Of a stretch of DNA of 32,000 bases, positions 16,101 through 26,778 are shown piece after piece (positions within the stretch are counted from its first letter, which is position 1; each line of letters opens with the position of its first letter). Source of the stretch: Gallaecimonas pentaromativorans (GTDB taxonomy: Bacteria > Pseudomonadota > Gammaproteobacteria > Enterobacterales > Gallaecimonadaceae). The notes beneath the pieces are model-generated. The model was not told where the DNA came from. It saw only the letters and a program-made list of their open reading frames with translations, and searched no databases. The stretch lies in the NCBI RefSeq assembly GCF_003751625.1, contig NZ_RJUL01000001.1:18253-50252 (forward strand), read 5' to 3'. The position numbers and the translations under genes were made by a program.

Positions 16101-16667
16101 ATGGCTAACCGTCTGAATAACCGCAAAGTAGCCGTTTTGGTTGCCGATGGGTTTGAGCAAATCGAGTTAACCTCTCCAATAGAGGCCCTTAAGGAAGCGG
16201 GCGCCAAGGTAGAGGTTATTGCGCCGTCACCAGGCCAGGTCAAAGGCTGGCAGCACGACCATTGGGGTGACCAGTTCGATGTCAGCTACTGCCTGAACGA
16301 TGGCGACCCGGAAGATTACGATGCTCTGCTGCTGCCCGGCGGCGTCATGAACCCCGATACCCTGCGAAACGATACCCGAGCGGTCCGCTTTGCCCGCCAT
16401 TTCTTCGATGCGGGTAAACCGGTGGCTGCCATCTGCCACGGGCCGCAGTTACTGGTGGAAACCGGCGCTTTGACTGGCCGCACCATGACCTCGTATTCGT
16501 CTATTAAAACCGATTTAAAAAACGCCGGCGTGCGCTGGGAAGACCGGGAAGTTGTCACGGACCAAGGCTTGGTAACAAGCCGCAGTCCTGATGACTTACC
16601 GGCGTTTAACCGTAAGATGGTCGAAGAATTTGCCGAGGGTAAGCACCGCGGGCAACGTACCGCTTGA
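16101..16667 (+). CDS. DJ-1/PfpI family protein (type-1 glutamine amidotransferase-like; general-stress/deglycase type)
   Basis: KVAVLVADGFEQIELTSP...YDALLLPGG...KPVAAICHGPQLL (nucleophile-elbow Cys-His). SD AAGGAG sits 7 nt upstream of the ATG. Confidence 0.9.
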   Translation: MANRLNNRKVAVLVADGFEQIELTSPIEALKEAGAKVEVIAPSPGQVKGWQHDHWGDQFDVSYCLNDGDPEDYDALLLPGGVMNPDTLRNDTRAVRFARHFFDAGKPVAAICHGPQLLVETGALTGRTMTSYSSIKTDLKNAGVRWEDREVVTDQGLVTSRSPDDLPAFNRKMVEEFAEGKHRGQRTA

Positions 16668-16683
16668 GCCAAAGCGCGTAATG

Positions 16684-16710
16684 AAAAAGCGGCCCGAAGG
16701 CCGCTTTTTC
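16684..16710. terminator. Bidirectional rho-independent terminator shared by convergent genes
   Basis: AAAAAGCGGCC-cgaa-GGCCGCTTTTT. The loop reads as a UUCG tetraloop on the minus strand. Confidence 0.85.
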
Positions 16711-18637
16711 AGATTTTGAATTTGCCCACCAGGCCATGAAGCTCGGTACCGAGCCCGGCCAGGGTTTCGGTAGAGTTGGCGGTTTCCTCCGAGGCCTGGG
16801 CGGTTTGCTCGGCAATTTCCCGCACCCGCACCACGCTGCGGTTTATCTCTTCGGCCACGGTGCTTTGCTCTTCGGCGGCGGTGGCGATTTGGTGGTTCAT
16901 GTCCTGGATGCGGGACACGGCATTGGCAATGTCGGTTAAAGACGCACCAGACTGCTGGGCCAGGGTCACGGTTTCGTCGGTGAGCTGGCGGCTGCGCTCC
17001 ATCATCAGCACCGATTCTTGAGTGCCGTGCTGCAGGTTGGCGATGAGGTTTTCAATCTCGGCGGTGGATTCCTGGGTGCGGCGCGCCAGGCCCCGCACTT
17101 CATCGGCTACCACCGCAAAACCGCGCCCGGCTTCACCAGCGCGGGCCGCTTCAATGGCGGCGTTCAGCGCCAGCAGGTTGGTTTGTTCTGCTACCGCTTT
17201 AATCACATCCAGCACGGTGCCGATGCTGTCGCTGTCGGCTTTGAGTTTTTCCATGGCCATGGCGGTATGGCCAATTTCCTGGGAAAGCCCCTCAATTTGT
17301 TGCACGGCCCGGGAAATCACTTTGTTGCCTTCGGCGGTGGTGTGGTCGGCTTCGGAGGCCGCCACAGCGGCCAGCTCGGCGTTGCGGGCCACTTCCTGCA
17401 CGGTGGCGGTCATTTCGTTGATGGCGGTGGCCACCTGATCGGTCTCGGCGCGCTGGCGCTGCATACCGGCACTGTTTTGTTCAGTCACCGCCGACAACTG
17501 CTCGGCAGAGCTGGCCAGTTGCTCGACGCTGCCACTGATCTGGCTCATCACATCGCGCAGGTTCTGGTTCATATGGGCCATGGCTTGCATCAGCTCGCCC
17601 AGCTCGTCTTTGCGCTCTACCCGGATGGTCGTACTCAAATCGCCATCGGCAATGGTGCGAGCCACGTTCACAGTGTCACGCAGCGGCCGCACTATTTGGC
17701 GGGTAATAATCCAAGCGCCCAGCACCCCCAGCATCAACGCCAGCGCCGACACCACAATCAGGGTTAGGATGGCCGAATGGCTGTCGGCTTCACGTTTGTC
17801 GGATTGAGACTCCATCAGGCGGTCAACCTGGGCACCCAGTTTCAGGGCCTCGGTGTCCATCTCTTTACGCAGCGATTCCTGCTCGCCCACCACTTTATTG
17901 AGCTGCAATACATGCTGGCGATAACCGGCCAGGGCCTTGAGGGCGTCATCGAGGATTTGACGGTCACCACCGCCAATATTGAGGGTGTCGGCCAGTTGCT
18001 GGATCTCGGCCATGGTCATGGTGGCGGCATCAAGGTTTTTGCTGCTGCCGTCAAAAATATAACCGCGCATGTAGTAGCGCAGCATGGCCACCCGCTGGTT
18101 GATGTCGGAGGCCAGCAGGGCGTTGGACACCACCGCTTCGTCGGCCATCACCTGAGCCATGCCCCCCAGGCTTTTATTGAGTTCGGTAACCTTGCCCACC
18201 ATGATGTTGCCGATTTTCACCCAACTGGTGCGGATCTCGGCTTTCTTGTTGGACAGCTCCACAAAGCGGGTGAATTCGCTTTGGTACTCTTTGGCAATGC
18301 TGTTGATCTGCTCAATGGTTTTGACATCAACCGGCGCCACAAACAAAGATTTCTTCTCAAGAGCAATGCTGGCAATCTTTTTGATGGCCTTATCAAAGTC
18401 GCCGACTTTGGCGTCATCCCCCGACACCAGATAATCGCGGCGGCTCACCTCGGCGTCCATCAACAGGTCGTTGACCATCCCCCCAACAGCGACTTTATCG
18501 CTTCTTGCCAGCATGGCATTTAACCCACGGCTCCCGGTCACGGCCACCACCAGGGTCAGCACCAGCACGATGCCAAAGCCCCAAGAGAGCTTGGCGGCGA
18601 CTGACAGGTTATCCATGATACGGGTTAGGTTACTCAT
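16709..18637 (-). CDS. Methyl-accepting chemotaxis protein with a ~260-aa all-helical periplasmic sensor domain and HAMP
   Basis: TM1, helical ligand-binding region, TM2, then HAMP ([19 protein letters not shown]). Conserved signalling hairpin [35 protein letters not shown]. The track ORF opens at the ATG at 18661; I prefer the ATG at 18637 (MSNLTRI..., AGAGG upstream). Confidence 0.9.
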
Positions 18638-18674
18638 CGGGGGGTTGCCTCTTTTATGCACGAGCTGCCCATCT

Positions 18675-20735: not shown

Positions 20736-20960
20736 ATGCCTACCATTACCCTCGTTCAAAATGCCGACAACCAAAACGGTGTTCACAACATGCGTGGCCA
20801 GCCGGGTGGTATCCCGCTGACGGGCCTTGCCGGTGACCATGCCGTCTTTACCTGTACCAATCCCTTGGCCACCATCCAGGGTATCACCAGCGTTGATATC
20901 GTTTATAACACTGGCGTCCCGGCCCCGGAAACCATCCAGGTAAGCTCGGTACAGCCCTGA
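20736..20960 (+). CDS. Hypothetical 74-aa protein, no recognisable family
   Basis: Canonical SD AAGGAG (20724-20729) 6 nt before the ATG. Codon third positions are G/C-rich like the neighbours. No signal peptide or TM. The composition looks beta-rich. Confidence 0.55.
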   Translation: MPTITLVQNADNQNGVHNMRGQPGGIPLTGLAGDHAVFTCTNPLATIQGITSVDIVYNTGVPAPETIQVSSVQP

Positions 20961-21123
20961 GCCAAAGCCGGTTGCTGCGGTAGCCGGCTTATTTCCCTTC
21001 AGCGAGTCAATACCCCCACTTCACCGCATCACCCTGGAAAAGCTTCCCCTGCCAACCCGCAACGGCGCTTTTTATCCTGCCCTTAACCGGCAACCGCCGG
21101 CACTCAAGGAAAGGAGAACACCC

Positions 21124-21660
21124 ATGCCTGTAATCGTCCGTCACCTCACTCCCAACAACGCTCTGCAACCCGGCTATGCCACGGCCCAAGTGCTGGCCCA
21201 GGAAACGGTGCTGCATTTTGCCGCCGTGCGCGGCACCAATGTCGGCATAGGCCCGGCTTCTTGCTGCGCAGCGCTTGCCGTACAGCCCACCCATCAGTTC
21301 CCGGCTCTGCCGGGCCAGGGCTTTGGGGTGGCTTTTGGCAATTCGCAAGTGGCCGCTGGCGGCCTCGACCAAGGCCCGGTTGGCAACCACGCCGAGCGCT
21401 GCGCCCTCACCGCTGCCGGCAATAACCACCTGGCGCTGACCAACCCAGCCGTGATGTTTGTCGAGCTGGCGCCCTGCAATGGCTGCCTGAATTGGTTGGA
21501 GGGTAACGGTGGCGGCGTTGCCAACCCTTACGATTTTGGCCCACATGGCGACACCCTGAATGTCTGGTACGCCTTTGACTACCCGGATGTTAACCAGGCC
21601 CTACAGGCCTTTCATCTGCTGCCCATCGACCAGCAACAAGCCGCTGTGGCGCTGTGGTAA
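21124..21660 (+). CDS. Hypothetical protein with a cytidine-deaminase-fold zinc signature (HAE ... PCxxC)
   Basis: SD AAGGAG (21111-21116) 7 nt before the ATG. HAE at aa 89-91 (nt 21388-21396) and PCNGC at aa 117-121 (nt 21472-21486). A strong terminator follows immediately. The antisense ORF 21007-21546 is judged a shadow. Confidence 0.65.
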   Translation: MPVIVRHLTPNNALQPGYATAQVLAQETVLHFAAVRGTNVGIGPASCCAALAVQPTHQFPALPGQGFGVAFGNSQVAAGGLDQGPVGNHAERCALTAAGNNHLALTNPAVMFVELAPCNGCLNWLEGNGGGVANPYDFGPHGDTLNVWYAFDYPDVNQALQAFHLLPIDQQQAAVALW

Positions 21661-23790: not shown

Positions 23791-24633
23791 TTAGCCTTTG
23801 ATAAAGGCCAGCACGTCGGCGTTGAATTTGTCGGGCTCGATTTGGGCAAGACCGTGGCTGGCACCGGGGTAAACCAGCAAGGTAGCGTCTTTGACTATCT
23901 TGGCGGTCTTTTCGGCGGAGGCGGCAATAGGCACGATTTGGTCGTCGTCACCGTGGATAACCAGGGTCGGCTTGTCAATTTTCTTAAGGTCTTCGGTGTA
24001 ATCGACTTCAGAGAACTCGCGGACACAGTCGAATTCGCCCTTGATGCCGCCTTGCATGCCCATCAGCCAGAACGACTCTTGCAAGCCGGGTTTCACTTCA
24101 GCGCCTTCACGGTTAAAGCCGTAGAAGGGCACAGTCAAATCTTTAAAGAACTGGGCGCGGTTGGTGGCAGTGCCTTGGCGGATACCGTCGAACACCTCCA
24201 TGGGGGTGCCTTCAGGGTTGGCATCGGTTTTGAGCATCAGCGGCGGTACGGCGCCAACCAGCACCATTTTGGCGACACGGGCAGAGCCATGGCGACCCAC
24301 ATAGTGGGCAATTTCGCCGCCGCCGGTGGAGTGACCAATCAGAATGGCATCTTTGAGATCCAGCGCTTCGATAACCTCGGCCAGGTCGTCAGCGTATTGG
24401 TCCATGTTGTTGCCGTCCCAGGGCTGGTCGGAATTACCGTGACCACGGCGGTCGTGGGCAATAACACGGTAGCCGTTCATGCCGAAAAACAGCATTTGGG
24501 CGTCCCAGGCGTCACCGGCCAGAGGCCAGCCGTGGGAAAACACGATAGGTTGGCCGGTGCCCCAGTCTTTATAAGCGATGCGGGTGCCGTCTTTGGTGGT
24601 GATGTATTGGGTGCTGGTGGTGTCGATAGACAT
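23791..24633 (-). CDS. Alpha/beta hydrolase, non-haem haloperoxidase / arylesterase type
   Basis: [41 protein letters not shown]...[18 protein letters not shown]...[10 protein letters not shown] (GxSxG). Start taken at the ATG at 24633 (GAGGAA upstream), not the upstream ATG at 24663. Confidence 0.9.
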
Positions 24634-25027
24634 AATTGATTCCTCGAAAATTTGGCCCTGCATTGAGGGGGATTTATCAAAAACCCGAGCCTGGATACCG
24701 GTTCATTCGTGGCTGCTTCATCTGGATAAAAATGAACAGGTATCAGCGACTCAAGATGCCTATCCAAGGTAGAGGAATCAGGATTTTTTTAAAGGCGGCA
24801 TCTGAAAAAACTCTTGTTCCTTAAATGGATACAATGACATAGCGCTGTCACAACCAATGCACTGACCCCACGCCATTTTTTGAAACCTGCCTTACATAAC
24901 TTAATCGCTTATTTACCGGCTCTGCTTTTTTGGCGTTAATTCACATTAACGGCGGCGCAAATAGTAAAAGGGCACGTCATTTAAGACATGCCCCCAAGTC
25001 ACACCTAAAAATAGCGGCCATAAGAAA

Positions 25028-25068: not shown

Positions 25069-26778
25069 TCATGACACCGCCACCTCATTTTTTATCCGAA
25101 AACGAGACACCATTTGCCGCAATCTGGCGGCCTGTTCTGACAAGTCTTCACAGGCCCGCTCGGTTTGGGTAGAACTGGCCAGCACCCGCTGCCCGGCATC
25201 GCGAATATCCACCACGTTACGGCTTATTTCCTCGGCTGCTGCCGATTGTTGTTCGCTGGCGGTGGCCATCATGGCATTGGCGTCGTTGAGCTGGGTCAGG
25301 GCCTGGTAGCCACTGCCAAGCTCGGTTTTGGCGGTATTGATACATTGCGAGGTTTCGAGAATTTTCTCGGAGCTTTGGTAGATCATCTCGGCGGCGCTAC
25401 CGGCGTTACCTACCAGGGTAGCAATCAGGTTTTGGATCTCCTGGGTGGCGTCCTGGCTGCGCGACGCCAGCGCCCGCACCTCATCGGCCACCACCGCAAA
25501 GCCCCGGCCCTGCTCGCCAGCCCGGGCCGCTTCAATGGCGGCGTTGAGGGCCAGGAGGTTGGTCTGTTCGGCAATGCCGTTGACGATATTGATAAATTCT
25601 TTGATTTTCTCCGTGCTTTGGCGAAGGTCGTCAATCATCTGCCGGGATTTGTCGGTGCTCAGCACCAGCTCTTCGCTCAGGCGCTGGGTTTTGTCCATGG
25701 TCACGCTGCCCTGCTTGATGCTGTTCTCGGCCTGGGAGCTGCTGGCAAAGGTGTCTTGGGCGTTGCGGGCCACCTGGGAGATGGTGGTGGACATCTGGTG
25801 GATGGCGCTGGAGGCCTGCTCGGTATTTTGCTGCTGCTGATTGACCGCCTGGCGGTTGTCTCTGGCCATTTGCGAGAGCGAAGCAGCCGAGCTCACCATT
25901 TGGTCGGAGTGGCTCATGATGCTGGCCACCATGGTGCTCAATGAACCAGCCATCTGCCCCATGCATTGCAGCAACCGGCCCAGCTCGTCCTTGCGGTTGA
26001 CCTCAATCTCGACATCGAAATTACCGTCTGCCATCTGCTCGGCCACGTGGCGTGCCTGGGCCACCGAGCCAACGATTTGCCGGCTGATCACCACACTCAC
26101 GCCAATGCCCAGCAGCAAGGCGGTGGCGGTGAGGAACACCGTTTGCCACATGGCGTGTTTCTCGTCGGCTTCGGCGTTCATGGCCACCGACTCCCCTACC
26201 GCTTCAATGCGGCCAATAAAGAGGGTCAGCTCCTGATTCAACGCCTGCTGGCGCTGCTCAAGGGCCTGGGCCTGGGTTTTAAAAGCGGCAGGCTTTTCAC
26301 TTTTTTGCAGCAGCTCAATCAAGGCAAAGGCTTGTTTTTCAAAGGCGTCATGATGCTCGATGATCTGCTGCAATTGCTGGGCGAGGCTCAGCTCGGTTGC
26401 TTTGACCTCGGTAGAAATGCTGTGCTCGATGGCGCCGCTCAGTAGCCCCTGAGCCTGGGTGATGTTTTTATCGAAATCCAACAGCATTTCCCGGTAGCGG
26501 CGCATCATCTTGGCCACATCGTCACGGCTGGCATCCATGGGAATGTCCATGGCCCGAAAGGATTGCTCCAGCACGGTAGCGCTTTGGATCTGGCGAACGG
26601 TGATTTGGCTGGTCAGTTGCACCAGCGGCATGGTCTCGTGGGCTATGCCTTTAATTTCTTCGGCGATTTTGCCCATTTTTATCATGCTGAACGCCGAGAT
26701 AAGCACGGTGATGGACAGCACCATGGCAACCAGCAACACGATTTTGAGGGCGACGGATTGATCCTTTAACCACTGCAT
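25069..26778 (-). CDS. Methyl-accepting chemotaxis protein with a ~175-aa helical (4HB-like) sensor domain and HAMP
   Basis: TM1 ([22 protein letters not shown]), helical periplasmic region, TM2, then HAMP ([11 protein letters not shown]). Signalling hairpin [43 protein letters not shown] upstream. Confidence 0.9.

Follow-up and report, generated by a model that had tools for sequence, protein, structure and literature searches.

The locus described here raises the question of what a small protein with a deaminase-like active site does between two ordinary chromosomal genes of Gallaecimonas pentaromativorans. The window, which is the whole 32,000-nucleotide stretch that was analyzed (contig NZ_RJUL01000001.1, positions 18,253 to 50,252 of the forward strand), contains an open reading frame (ORF) for a 178-amino-acid (178-aa) protein. 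A first-pass annotation made from the sequence alone had singled this protein out as an uncharacterized deaminase of the cytidine deaminase-like (CDA) fold, which could be a toxin, a defense effector, or a small-molecule enzyme. Our results agreed with the assignment in terms of fold, invariant motifs, and purifying selection. They also placed the protein in a rare family whose relatives recur in weapon-like loci. Of the functions that we considered, we ranked first a delivered nucleic acid deaminase effector or toxin, of which the Gallaecimonas protein would be an orphan copy, and we give this reading about an even chance of being correct.

The features on which the annotation rested were all found in the sequence: the ORF, its Shine-Dalgarno (SD) element, an HAE motif at residues 89 to 91, a PCNGC motif at residues 117 to 121, and 25 residues between E91 and P117. 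When the window was translated in six frames, the pattern [HC]AE-x(20-40)-PCxxC was found once, compared to 0.013 times per shuffled 32-kb window. In a public assembly, a sister locus (L001) that shares about 90% DNA identity with the window preserved the gene order EAL gene, 74-aa ORF, deaminase-like gene, and nitroreductase gene. The two copies of the deaminase-like gene differed at 36 nucleotides, 30 of them at codon position 3, and the codon changes were 29 synonymous versus 4 nonsynonymous. The deaminase-like ORF is a real gene under purifying selection. An antisense 179-aa ORF (positions 21007 to 21546, minus strand) was set aside as a shadow of the GC-rich gene, as the substitution pattern and all of the homologues favored the plus-strand frame.

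The G+C content at third codon positions was 0.70 in the deaminase-like gene and 0.69 to 0.74 in its neighbors, which is the neighbor-like composition that had been described. The gene has a higher overall GC content, which comes from first codon positions and reflects the many Ala and Gly residues of the protein. A terminator had also been proposed directly downstream, and the hairpin at this position folded with an energy of -22.4 kcal/mol (z = -6.5; 0 of 200 shuffles folded as well). Owing to its short T-run, it was not picked up by a consensus terminator scan. Its counterpart in the sister locus was preserved, with one G-U pair.

Profile and structure searches both pointed to the CDA fold. 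The sole Pfam model reached was PF00383, which matched residues 85 to 124 with a marginal score (25.7 bits versus a cut-off of 25) and which matched 29 of 30 family members (E < 0.1; best 1e-6). The AlphaFold2 (AF2) model, built from an alignment of 30 homologues, was a confident single domain, with a predicted local distance difference test score (pLDDT) of 86.2 and a predicted template modeling score (pTM) of 0.87. Its elements were a strand at residues 3 to 7, a helix at 18 to 32, strands at 48 to 53 and 68 to 73, a helix at 90 to 100 that starts from HAE, a strand at 109 to 115, a helix at 119 to 125 that starts from PCxxC, a strand at 145 to 151, and helices at 157 to 164 and 168 to 177. 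This corresponded to the canonical order helix 1, strand 1, strand 2, helix 2, strand 3, helix 3, strand 4, and helix 4, with no strand 5 predicted, compared to the five-stranded sheet (order 2-1-3-4-5) of the three-layer alpha/beta/alpha CDA fold. When the model was compared to the PDB with Foldseek, all of the top 50 matches were CDA-fold deaminases (GuaD 1tiy/1wkq, TadA, ADAT2, APOBEC3, dCMP deaminase, and CDA), with weak scores throughout (none beyond E = 3e-3 or a template modeling [TM] score of 0.48). The top matches among viral structures in BFVD were likewise CDA-fold deaminases. A profile built from two tiers of homologues matched T4 dCMP deaminase (1vq2) at E = 2e-6 and GuaD (1wkq) and TadA (2b3j) at about 5e-4, and a phmmer sequence search of the PDB gave no significant match and no deaminase.

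The whole protein is thus predicted to be one CDA-fold domain, which is the outcome that the first-pass annotation had anticipated for profile and structure searches. The annotation had also described an N-terminal region of about 88 residues of unknown nature, and this description needed to be revised. In the AF2 model, these 88 residues make up the opening half of the fold itself (helix 1 and strands 1 and 2), and they are conserved across the family. In a published scheme, the deaminase fold has two divisions, and a helix after strand 4 marks the Helix-4 division (PMC3239186). The AF2 model has this helix, and therefore the protein appears to be nearer the Helix-4 division. In the model, the conserved N-terminal strand (residues 3 to 7) may take the place of strand 5.

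Next to the fold, the conservation of individual residues was informative. In 30 family members, H89, E91, C118, and C121 of the proposed active site were invariant, and P117 was nearly so. Also invariant were S46, C47, G72-N73-S74, W124-L125, G127, V132, N134-P135, W148, Y153, and H164; C48 was at least 90% conserved, and Met1-Pro2 was invariant or nearly so. In a 29-sequence alignment that included the distant tier, the invariant residues were C47, S74, H89-A90-E91, P117, C118, and C121. Hence, the conservation of Cys47 equaled that of the catalytic Glu and the three Zn ligands, in the core family and in the distant tier alike, and we know of no fourth cysteine of this kind in canonical CDA-fold enzymes.

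The family did not coincide with any named group of deaminases. None of the named toxin-deaminase models (PF14428 DddA-like, PF14437 MafB19, PF14440 XOO_2897, PF14431 YwqJ, PF14424, and others) was reached by the protein. MafB19-deam (PF14437) scored 16.6 bits versus a cut-off of 27 and was a subthreshold match in 19 of 30 members, XOO_2897 was matched weakly and in second-tier relatives only, and no other toxin-deaminase Pfam family matched at E < 0.1 among the 30 members. Nothing in NCBIfam was above threshold: the RibD model TIGR00326 scored 15.8 bits versus 156, and the remaining matches were at chance level. Because no NCBIfam equivalog threshold was reached, the earlier suggestion that the protein lies outside the housekeeping deaminase families was upheld.

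The protein had been called an orphan, but it is not a strict one, as a word-indexed search found 38 homologue clusters (all 104 to 235 aa) and an exhaustive profile search of 1.84 billion representatives matched 98, of which 32 had E values below 1e-30. One cluster was named "Pyrimidine deaminase," and the rest were named "hypothetical protein" or had no name. The protein itself (WP_050660715.1/ROQ30352.1) is labeled "hypothetical protein" by NCBI, and its UniProt entry (A0A3N1PFW7) has the automatic name "Cytidine/deoxycytidylate deaminase-like protein." A deaminase-like label is therefore already in the databases through automated annotation. We found no paper on this deaminase-like family, which is a new, unnamed clade in a well-known superfamily and functional theme.

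The family is also rare. Its carriers numbered 17 of 185,579 species genomes and spanned more than 10 phyla, and they included Sulfurimonas, Sphingobacteriia, Paenibacillus, Citrobacter sedlakii, Pyxidicoccus, Gemmatimonadota, Verrucomicrobia, Pyrinomonadaceae, Melioribacteraceae, and Sphaerochaeta; the cyanobacterium Laspinema was represented among the clusters from the word-indexed search. The closest named relative, from Sulfurimonas, was 64% identical. This rare and scattered distribution indicated a horizontally moving accessory gene and not a housekeeping enzyme, and the fully host-like codon usage in Gallaecimonas indicated that the acquisition was not recent. With regard to vehicles, a tblastn search of 72,556 plasmids and 50,697 phage genomes detected no family member, and members were carried by one contig from IMG/VR and by related prophage loci from the gut.

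To examine what accompanies the family elsewhere, we compared gene neighborhoods in about 27 lineages, which consisted of 23 lineages obtained by clustering at 80% plus four whose genes had been missed by the ORF caller. Homologues adjacent to type VI secretion system (T6SS) genes or to VgrG-Hcp-PAAR genes were seen in L026, L030, and L057 to L063. In Citrobacter sedlakii, the order was TssC, TssF, TssG, ClpV, the homologue, VgrG, and a 174-aa MORN_2-repeat protein. In MAG299, it was TssC, TssK, TssE, a 542-aa protein, the homologue, and a protein resembling the C terminus of VgrG. Seven contigs from the human gut had a gene for a 209-aa Phage_base_V spike protein two genes upstream of the family member. 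The MORN_2 protein two genes from the homologue was a single case (L026). We take YwqK, an immunity protein to which we return below, to be a MORN-variant (MORN_2) repeat protein; if this is right, the Citrobacter MORN_2 gene is a candidate immunity gene.

These T6SS loci also bear on two further ideas, namely that the protein edits RNA (tRNA) as a housekeeping-type enzyme or that it binds Zn without being catalytic and has an accessory or structural role in injection machines. TadA and ADAT2 were among the best fold and sequence matches, the L026 gene lies among T6SS core genes and not after VgrG, and the extra invariant Cys47 could have a noncatalytic Zn or redox role. Nonetheless, we regard both possibilities as very improbable. 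The catalytic Glu91 was invariant in every member, contrary to what a silent scaffold predicts, and the family is far too rare for a tRNA-editing housekeeping enzyme. Moreover, most members are not beside any injection machine, and the gene is not general in T6SS clusters: a blastn search of 5,426 E. coli genomes found no counterpart at the Citrobacter T6SS position, where tssH alone matched.

A second context was the operon of DUF2589 genes. In six lineages, including Sulfurimonas, the family member was the last gene of the operon and followed two or three DUF2589 paralogues. The operons often contained a gene for a 62- to 85-aa Zn-ribbon protein, those of three lineages contained a gene for a PG_binding_1/endolysin-like protein, and Sigma70-TPR regulators recurred nearby. 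DUF2589 has more than 1,080 protein clusters and is thus far more common than the deaminase family. Operons that lacked the deaminase were informative. One from Chryseobacterium had the same frame plus a small Tox-HDC-like protein (a weak match) and a GH25 lysozyme, and a Kangiella-type operon had a STAND-TPR regulator and other variable genes. Because of these variable genes in deaminase-free operons, the deaminase-like gene looks like one of several exchangeable cargo genes. The DUF2589 operon looks like a toxin-release or delivery system.

We found no literature on DUF2589 function. The AF2 model of DUF2589 was poor (pLDDT 59, pTM 0.38), the best Foldseek match had an E value of 1.7, and sequence profiles found no PDB relative and no PHROG. 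The paralogues have a long helix at the N terminus, beta-hairpins, and a disordered segment rich in Ser. Recurrent operon loci were L018:6480-8540, L013:3752-6555, L011:2105-6636, L022:4123-8567, L069:6557-9776, and L072:6323-8863. Their dedicated regulators were of the sigma70-TPR, STAND-TPR-winged helix-turn-helix, TPR-kinase/LytTR, or OmpR type, and the variable gene, for a member of the deaminase family or a Tox-HDC-like protein, was last or first. Sphaerochaeta had two family paralogues right after DUF2589 genes (L033:6897-7895 and L033:8001-8429), the first of which (332 aa) extends at its C terminus into an additional domain of about 170 residues that matched no family.

In a third context, other gut contigs and one IMG/VR contig, the family member was located between a gene for a lysis-like membrane protein and the terminase/portal genes. 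In a further lineage (L051), an Abi_2 gene was directly upstream of the homologue. An anti-phage or abortive-infection effector that deaminates phage or host nucleotides or nucleic acids upon infection would fit this Abi_2 adjacency, the prophage-borne homologue at a lysis/packaging junction, and the STAND-NTPase/TPR or sigma-TPR regulators, typical of conflict systems, that accompany some DUF2589 operons. Deaminase-based defense is also known, as exemplified by the dCTP deaminase NF041025. Even so, we consider such a role improbable. The alignment to NF041025 was at chance level (9.5 bits versus a cut-off of 400), no PADLOC model was matched, the protein has no sensor or regulatory domain, no defense-island neighbors were seen in the window, and the Abi adjacency was the only one in the approximately 27 lineages.

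From the fold and from the contexts of relatives, we infer catalysis, substrate, toxicity, and delivery as follows. The protein would be an active, Zn-dependent hydrolytic deaminase. His89, Cys118, and Cys121 would hold a Zn ion that activates water, and Glu91 would shuttle protons. Oxygen would take the place of the exocyclic amino group on a base; this base would most likely be cytosine (or adenine), in DNA or RNA. The family may consist of standalone cargo effectors or toxins of about 20 kDa that serve inter-organism conflict systems. In some bacteria, the family member would be loaded onto or beside the T6SS spike; in others, it would be the variable last gene of DUF2589/peptidoglycan-hydrolase operons; and in gut bacteria, it would be carried by a prophage. 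The Gallaecimonas copy has its own SD element and terminator, its codon usage resembles that of the host, and the 32-kb window contains no delivery genes; this copy would be an orphan of the family.

This effector reading was ranked first because the catalytic center is intact, the family is rare and scattered, weapon-like loci recur, and the superfamily provides a precedent, as both standalone cassettes of deaminase toxins and their delivery by the T6SS are established in it (PMC3239186). Several toxin clades, including MafB19 and XOO_2897, have single-stranded DNA (ssDNA) cytidine deaminase activity (bioRxiv 10.1101/2023.05.21.541555), and YwqJ is an ssDNA cytidine deaminase toxin whose immunity protein is YwqK (PMC13648612). 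On the evidence of sequence and gene context, a delivered nucleic acid-editing toxin was more likely than a metabolic enzyme.

Several observations weigh against the effector reading. The 32-kb window contains no T6SS, DUF2589, spike, or phage genes, and the protein has no trafficking domain (PAAR, Rhs, LXG, or MIX) and no signal peptide. About half of the approximately 27 lineages had uninformative neighbors, and no conserved neighbor fit as an immunity gene was found across them. If the protein were a DNA deaminase toxic to its own cell, it would be hard to maintain without immunity under purifying selection as strong as that observed. In addition, the best structure and sequence matches were metabolic or tRNA enzymes (GuaD, dCMP deaminase, and TadA) and not solved toxins, and neither PADLOC nor PHROG had a family that matched the protein.

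Some of these observations would be expected of a cytoplasmic small-molecule deaminase that acts on a free base, a nucleoside, a nucleotide, or a xenobiotic or secondary-metabolite amine and that serves the cell that makes it, in salvage, detoxification, or compound modification. Guanine deaminase was the best fold match, and dCMP deaminase was the protein that the broad profile matched best in sequence. In composition, the gene fits its surroundings; it is also strongly conserved in two Gallaecimonas genomes and is located beside a nitroreductase gene in a genus that degrades xenobiotics (PMC12539734), and one homologue was near nonribosomal peptide synthetase genes. Missing signal peptide, trafficking domain, and immunity gene also suit such an enzyme. 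What makes it unlikely, in our view, is the extreme phyletic scatter, together with the repeated T6SS, DUF2589/peptidoglycan-hydrolase, and prophage placements, which are atypical of a metabolic enzyme. Furthermore, no recurrent nucleotide, riboflavin, or other metabolic neighbor was found in the approximately 27 lineages, and the matches to metabolic deaminases were all weak (TM scores of about 0.45; the RibD score given above). Both the small-molecule and the anti-phage explanations retain some weight because no immunity gene was found and because the gene is strongly conserved in a region without a delivery system.

The deaminase effector that we favor can be compared to three groups of known proteins. 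Like the toxin deaminases (DddA/SCP1.201 PF14428, SsdA/BaDTF2, MafB19, XOO_2897, and YwqJ), the family has the fold and the H-x-E...P-C-x-x-C Zn/Glu center, a patchy horizontal spread, homologues in T6SS clusters beside VgrG, and a weak, subthreshold similarity to the MafB19 and XOO_2897 models. Unlike them, the protein is a free-standing 178-aa protein that is conserved from Met1 and not the C-terminal domain of a PAAR, Rhs, or LXG polymorphic toxin; the family members that were compared in this respect were all single-domain proteins of 173 to 235 aa. The AF2 model, with its helix 4 and no strand 5, is a further difference. The family also differs in that it has no conserved adjacent immunity gene, does not reach the Pfam models, and has Cys47, Ser74, a Gly-rich loop, and the N-terminal strand from Met1-Pro2.

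The enzymes of the Helix-4 division (T4/ComEB dCMP deaminase, GuaD, and TadA/ADAT2) were the best matches by fold (1tiy/1wkq, 1wwr, and 3dh1) and by profile, and they share with the AF2 model the helix after strand 4. However, TM scores were 0.33 to 0.48, identities were 13 to 21%, and the sequence match spanned HAE to strand 4 only; moreover, these enzymes are pan-bacterial, whereas the present family is confined to the few species noted above. The third group was the small T6SS cargo effectors that are carried by Hcp or VgrG (Pseudomonas Tse type). The family resembles them in size (about 20 kDa) and in having no trafficking domain, and in three lineages it is encoded next to spike genes or T6SS core genes. 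In contrast, the usual downstream immunity gene was not seen, and the Gallaecimonas copy has no T6SS genes in 32 kb.

Deaminase toxins such as DddA, SsdA, and YwqJ have been a window on interbacterial warfare and a source of base editors. To our knowledge, each new toxin-deaminase clade to date has brought a different substrate or sequence preference. The present family is small, free-standing, confidently modeled, and uncovered by specific models, and it has three weapon-like contexts, which makes it cheap to test. It may be of use as a compact deaminase. The DUF2589 operon (more than 1,000 protein clusters) is flagged as a possible undescribed toxin-release system. The Gallaecimonas locus also raises a puzzle, namely how an orphan copy without an immunity gene is tolerated and conserved.

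The second-tier relatives (E = 1e-13 to 1e-4) share the architecture of the core family but not its Gly-rich loop. These proteins of about 190 to 220 aa include P0086, P0106, P0120 (WP_310621747.1), P0122, P0105, and P0131 (alignment A7). Their C termini have a conserved KKxRxxxFGRIxEPK motif and a basic tail, such as EPKPKRRKLDD or KRPRTD...PTKRQRTDVR. The only member with a named organism was from the coral-associated alphaproteobacterium Flexibacterium corallicola/Pseudovibrio. The basic tail resembles a eukaryotic nuclear-localization signal or a tail that binds nucleic acid; it is speculation that it serves in nucleic acid binding or as a host nuclear-localization signal. A broader proposal takes the protein to be the founding member of a new clade of compact (about 180 aa), self-contained nucleic acid deaminases whose active site has unusual surroundings, with an invariant fourth cysteine and an N-terminal strand that replaces strand 5. 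Its members would be exchangeable toxin cargo for at least two routes, the T6SS and an undescribed, widespread DUF2589/Zn-ribbon/peptidoglycan-hydrolase toxin-release system, and nucleic acids, perhaps those in the nuclei of eukaryotic hosts, would be the target of the sister clade with the basic tail. If its substrate specificity proves to be new, the family would also be a candidate small base-editor scaffold. In its entirety, this proposal is tentative and rather doubtful.

Table 1. Features of the deaminase-like gene and its surroundings in the window (position 1 is the first nucleotide of the window)
Feature	Position	Strand	Basis or remark
Deaminase-like gene, 178 aa, ATG start, predicted single CDA-fold domain, WP_050660715.1	21124..21660	+	ORF list, selection, AF2, Foldseek
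Shine-Dalgarno element AAGGAG, spacer of 7 nt to ATG	21111..21116	+	Read off the sequence
His89-Ala90-Glu91 codons (putative Zn ligand and catalytic Glu, start of helix 2)	21388..21396	+	Invariant; aligned to HAE of T4 dCMP deaminase, GuaD, and TadA
Pro117-Cys118-Asn-Gly-Cys121 codons (two putative Zn ligands, start of helix 3)	21472..21486	+	Family alignments
Ser46-Cys47-Cys48 codons, start of strand 1; Cys47 is a family-specific invariant	21259..21267	+	Family alignments
Gly72-Asn73-Ser74 codons, end of strand 2; family signature	21337..21345	+	Ser74 invariant in both tiers
Gly-rich loop codons G127-N-G-G-G-V-A-N-P135, after helix 3	21502..21528	+	Core family only; not in second-tier relatives
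Intrinsic-terminator-like hairpin directly 3' of the stop codon	21667..21700	+	Folding energy; kept in sister locus L001
74-aa upstream ORF (orf74, WP_123420271.1), doubtful, lineage-restricted	20736..20960	+	Substitution pattern, homologue searches

The features of the locus are listed in Table 1. The upstream ORF, orf74, is not a conserved partner of the deaminase-like family. Homologues of orf74 were found in Gallaecimonas only, and none adjoins any other family member. Relative to L001, orf74 had 9 synonymous versus 10 nonsynonymous changes plus a net in-frame 6-nt indel, and its nucleotide identity (89%) was the same as that of intergenic DNA, with the frame and stop codon kept. It is followed by its own hairpin at 20965 to 20990 (-19.7 kcal/mol, z = -3.3), and family searches gave no match. 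Thus, orf74 was rejected as a partner or immunity gene and is either a fast-evolving small protein or a non-gene.

Some single loci of relatives had further neighbors. In a Verrucomicrobia member (L025:6268-7854), a 528-aa protein encoded directly upstream had an HNH-like motif by eye (CAYCES...HH...VEHFRPK...CQLCN) and no Pfam match at E < 0.001; no relation was detected among the 528- to 550-aa upstream proteins in L025, L028, and L030. In a Pyrinomonadaceae metagenome-assembled genome (L014:5871-10623), the family member was about 0.8 kb upstream of a Sigma70_ECF-TPR gene, after which came two RebB (R-body) genes; R-bodies are polymers associated with toxin delivery. In Paenibacillus sp. 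S-38 (L005:3545-5810), two near-identical RhiA-family genes and a gene for a 258-aa protein with no family match preceded the family member. RhiA and RebB, each a single-locus observation, were rejected as DUF2589 relatives, with hhalign probabilities of 0.2 to 0.3%.

In the window itself, the deaminase-like gene is flanked by a CSS-motif/EAL gene and the gene for the NfsB nitroreductase, as the first-pass annotation had read them. The surrounding genes (16101 to 18661 and 25069 to 26778) were ordinary chromosomal genes, including those for a DJ-1/PfpI protein (16101 to 16667), the CSS-motif EAL phosphodiesterase, and NfsB. Two ORFs near the deaminase-like gene resembled methyl-accepting chemotaxis proteins by eye. 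A region of low GC content (0.435) was located at about 24600 to 25000, between two convergently or divergently arranged genes.

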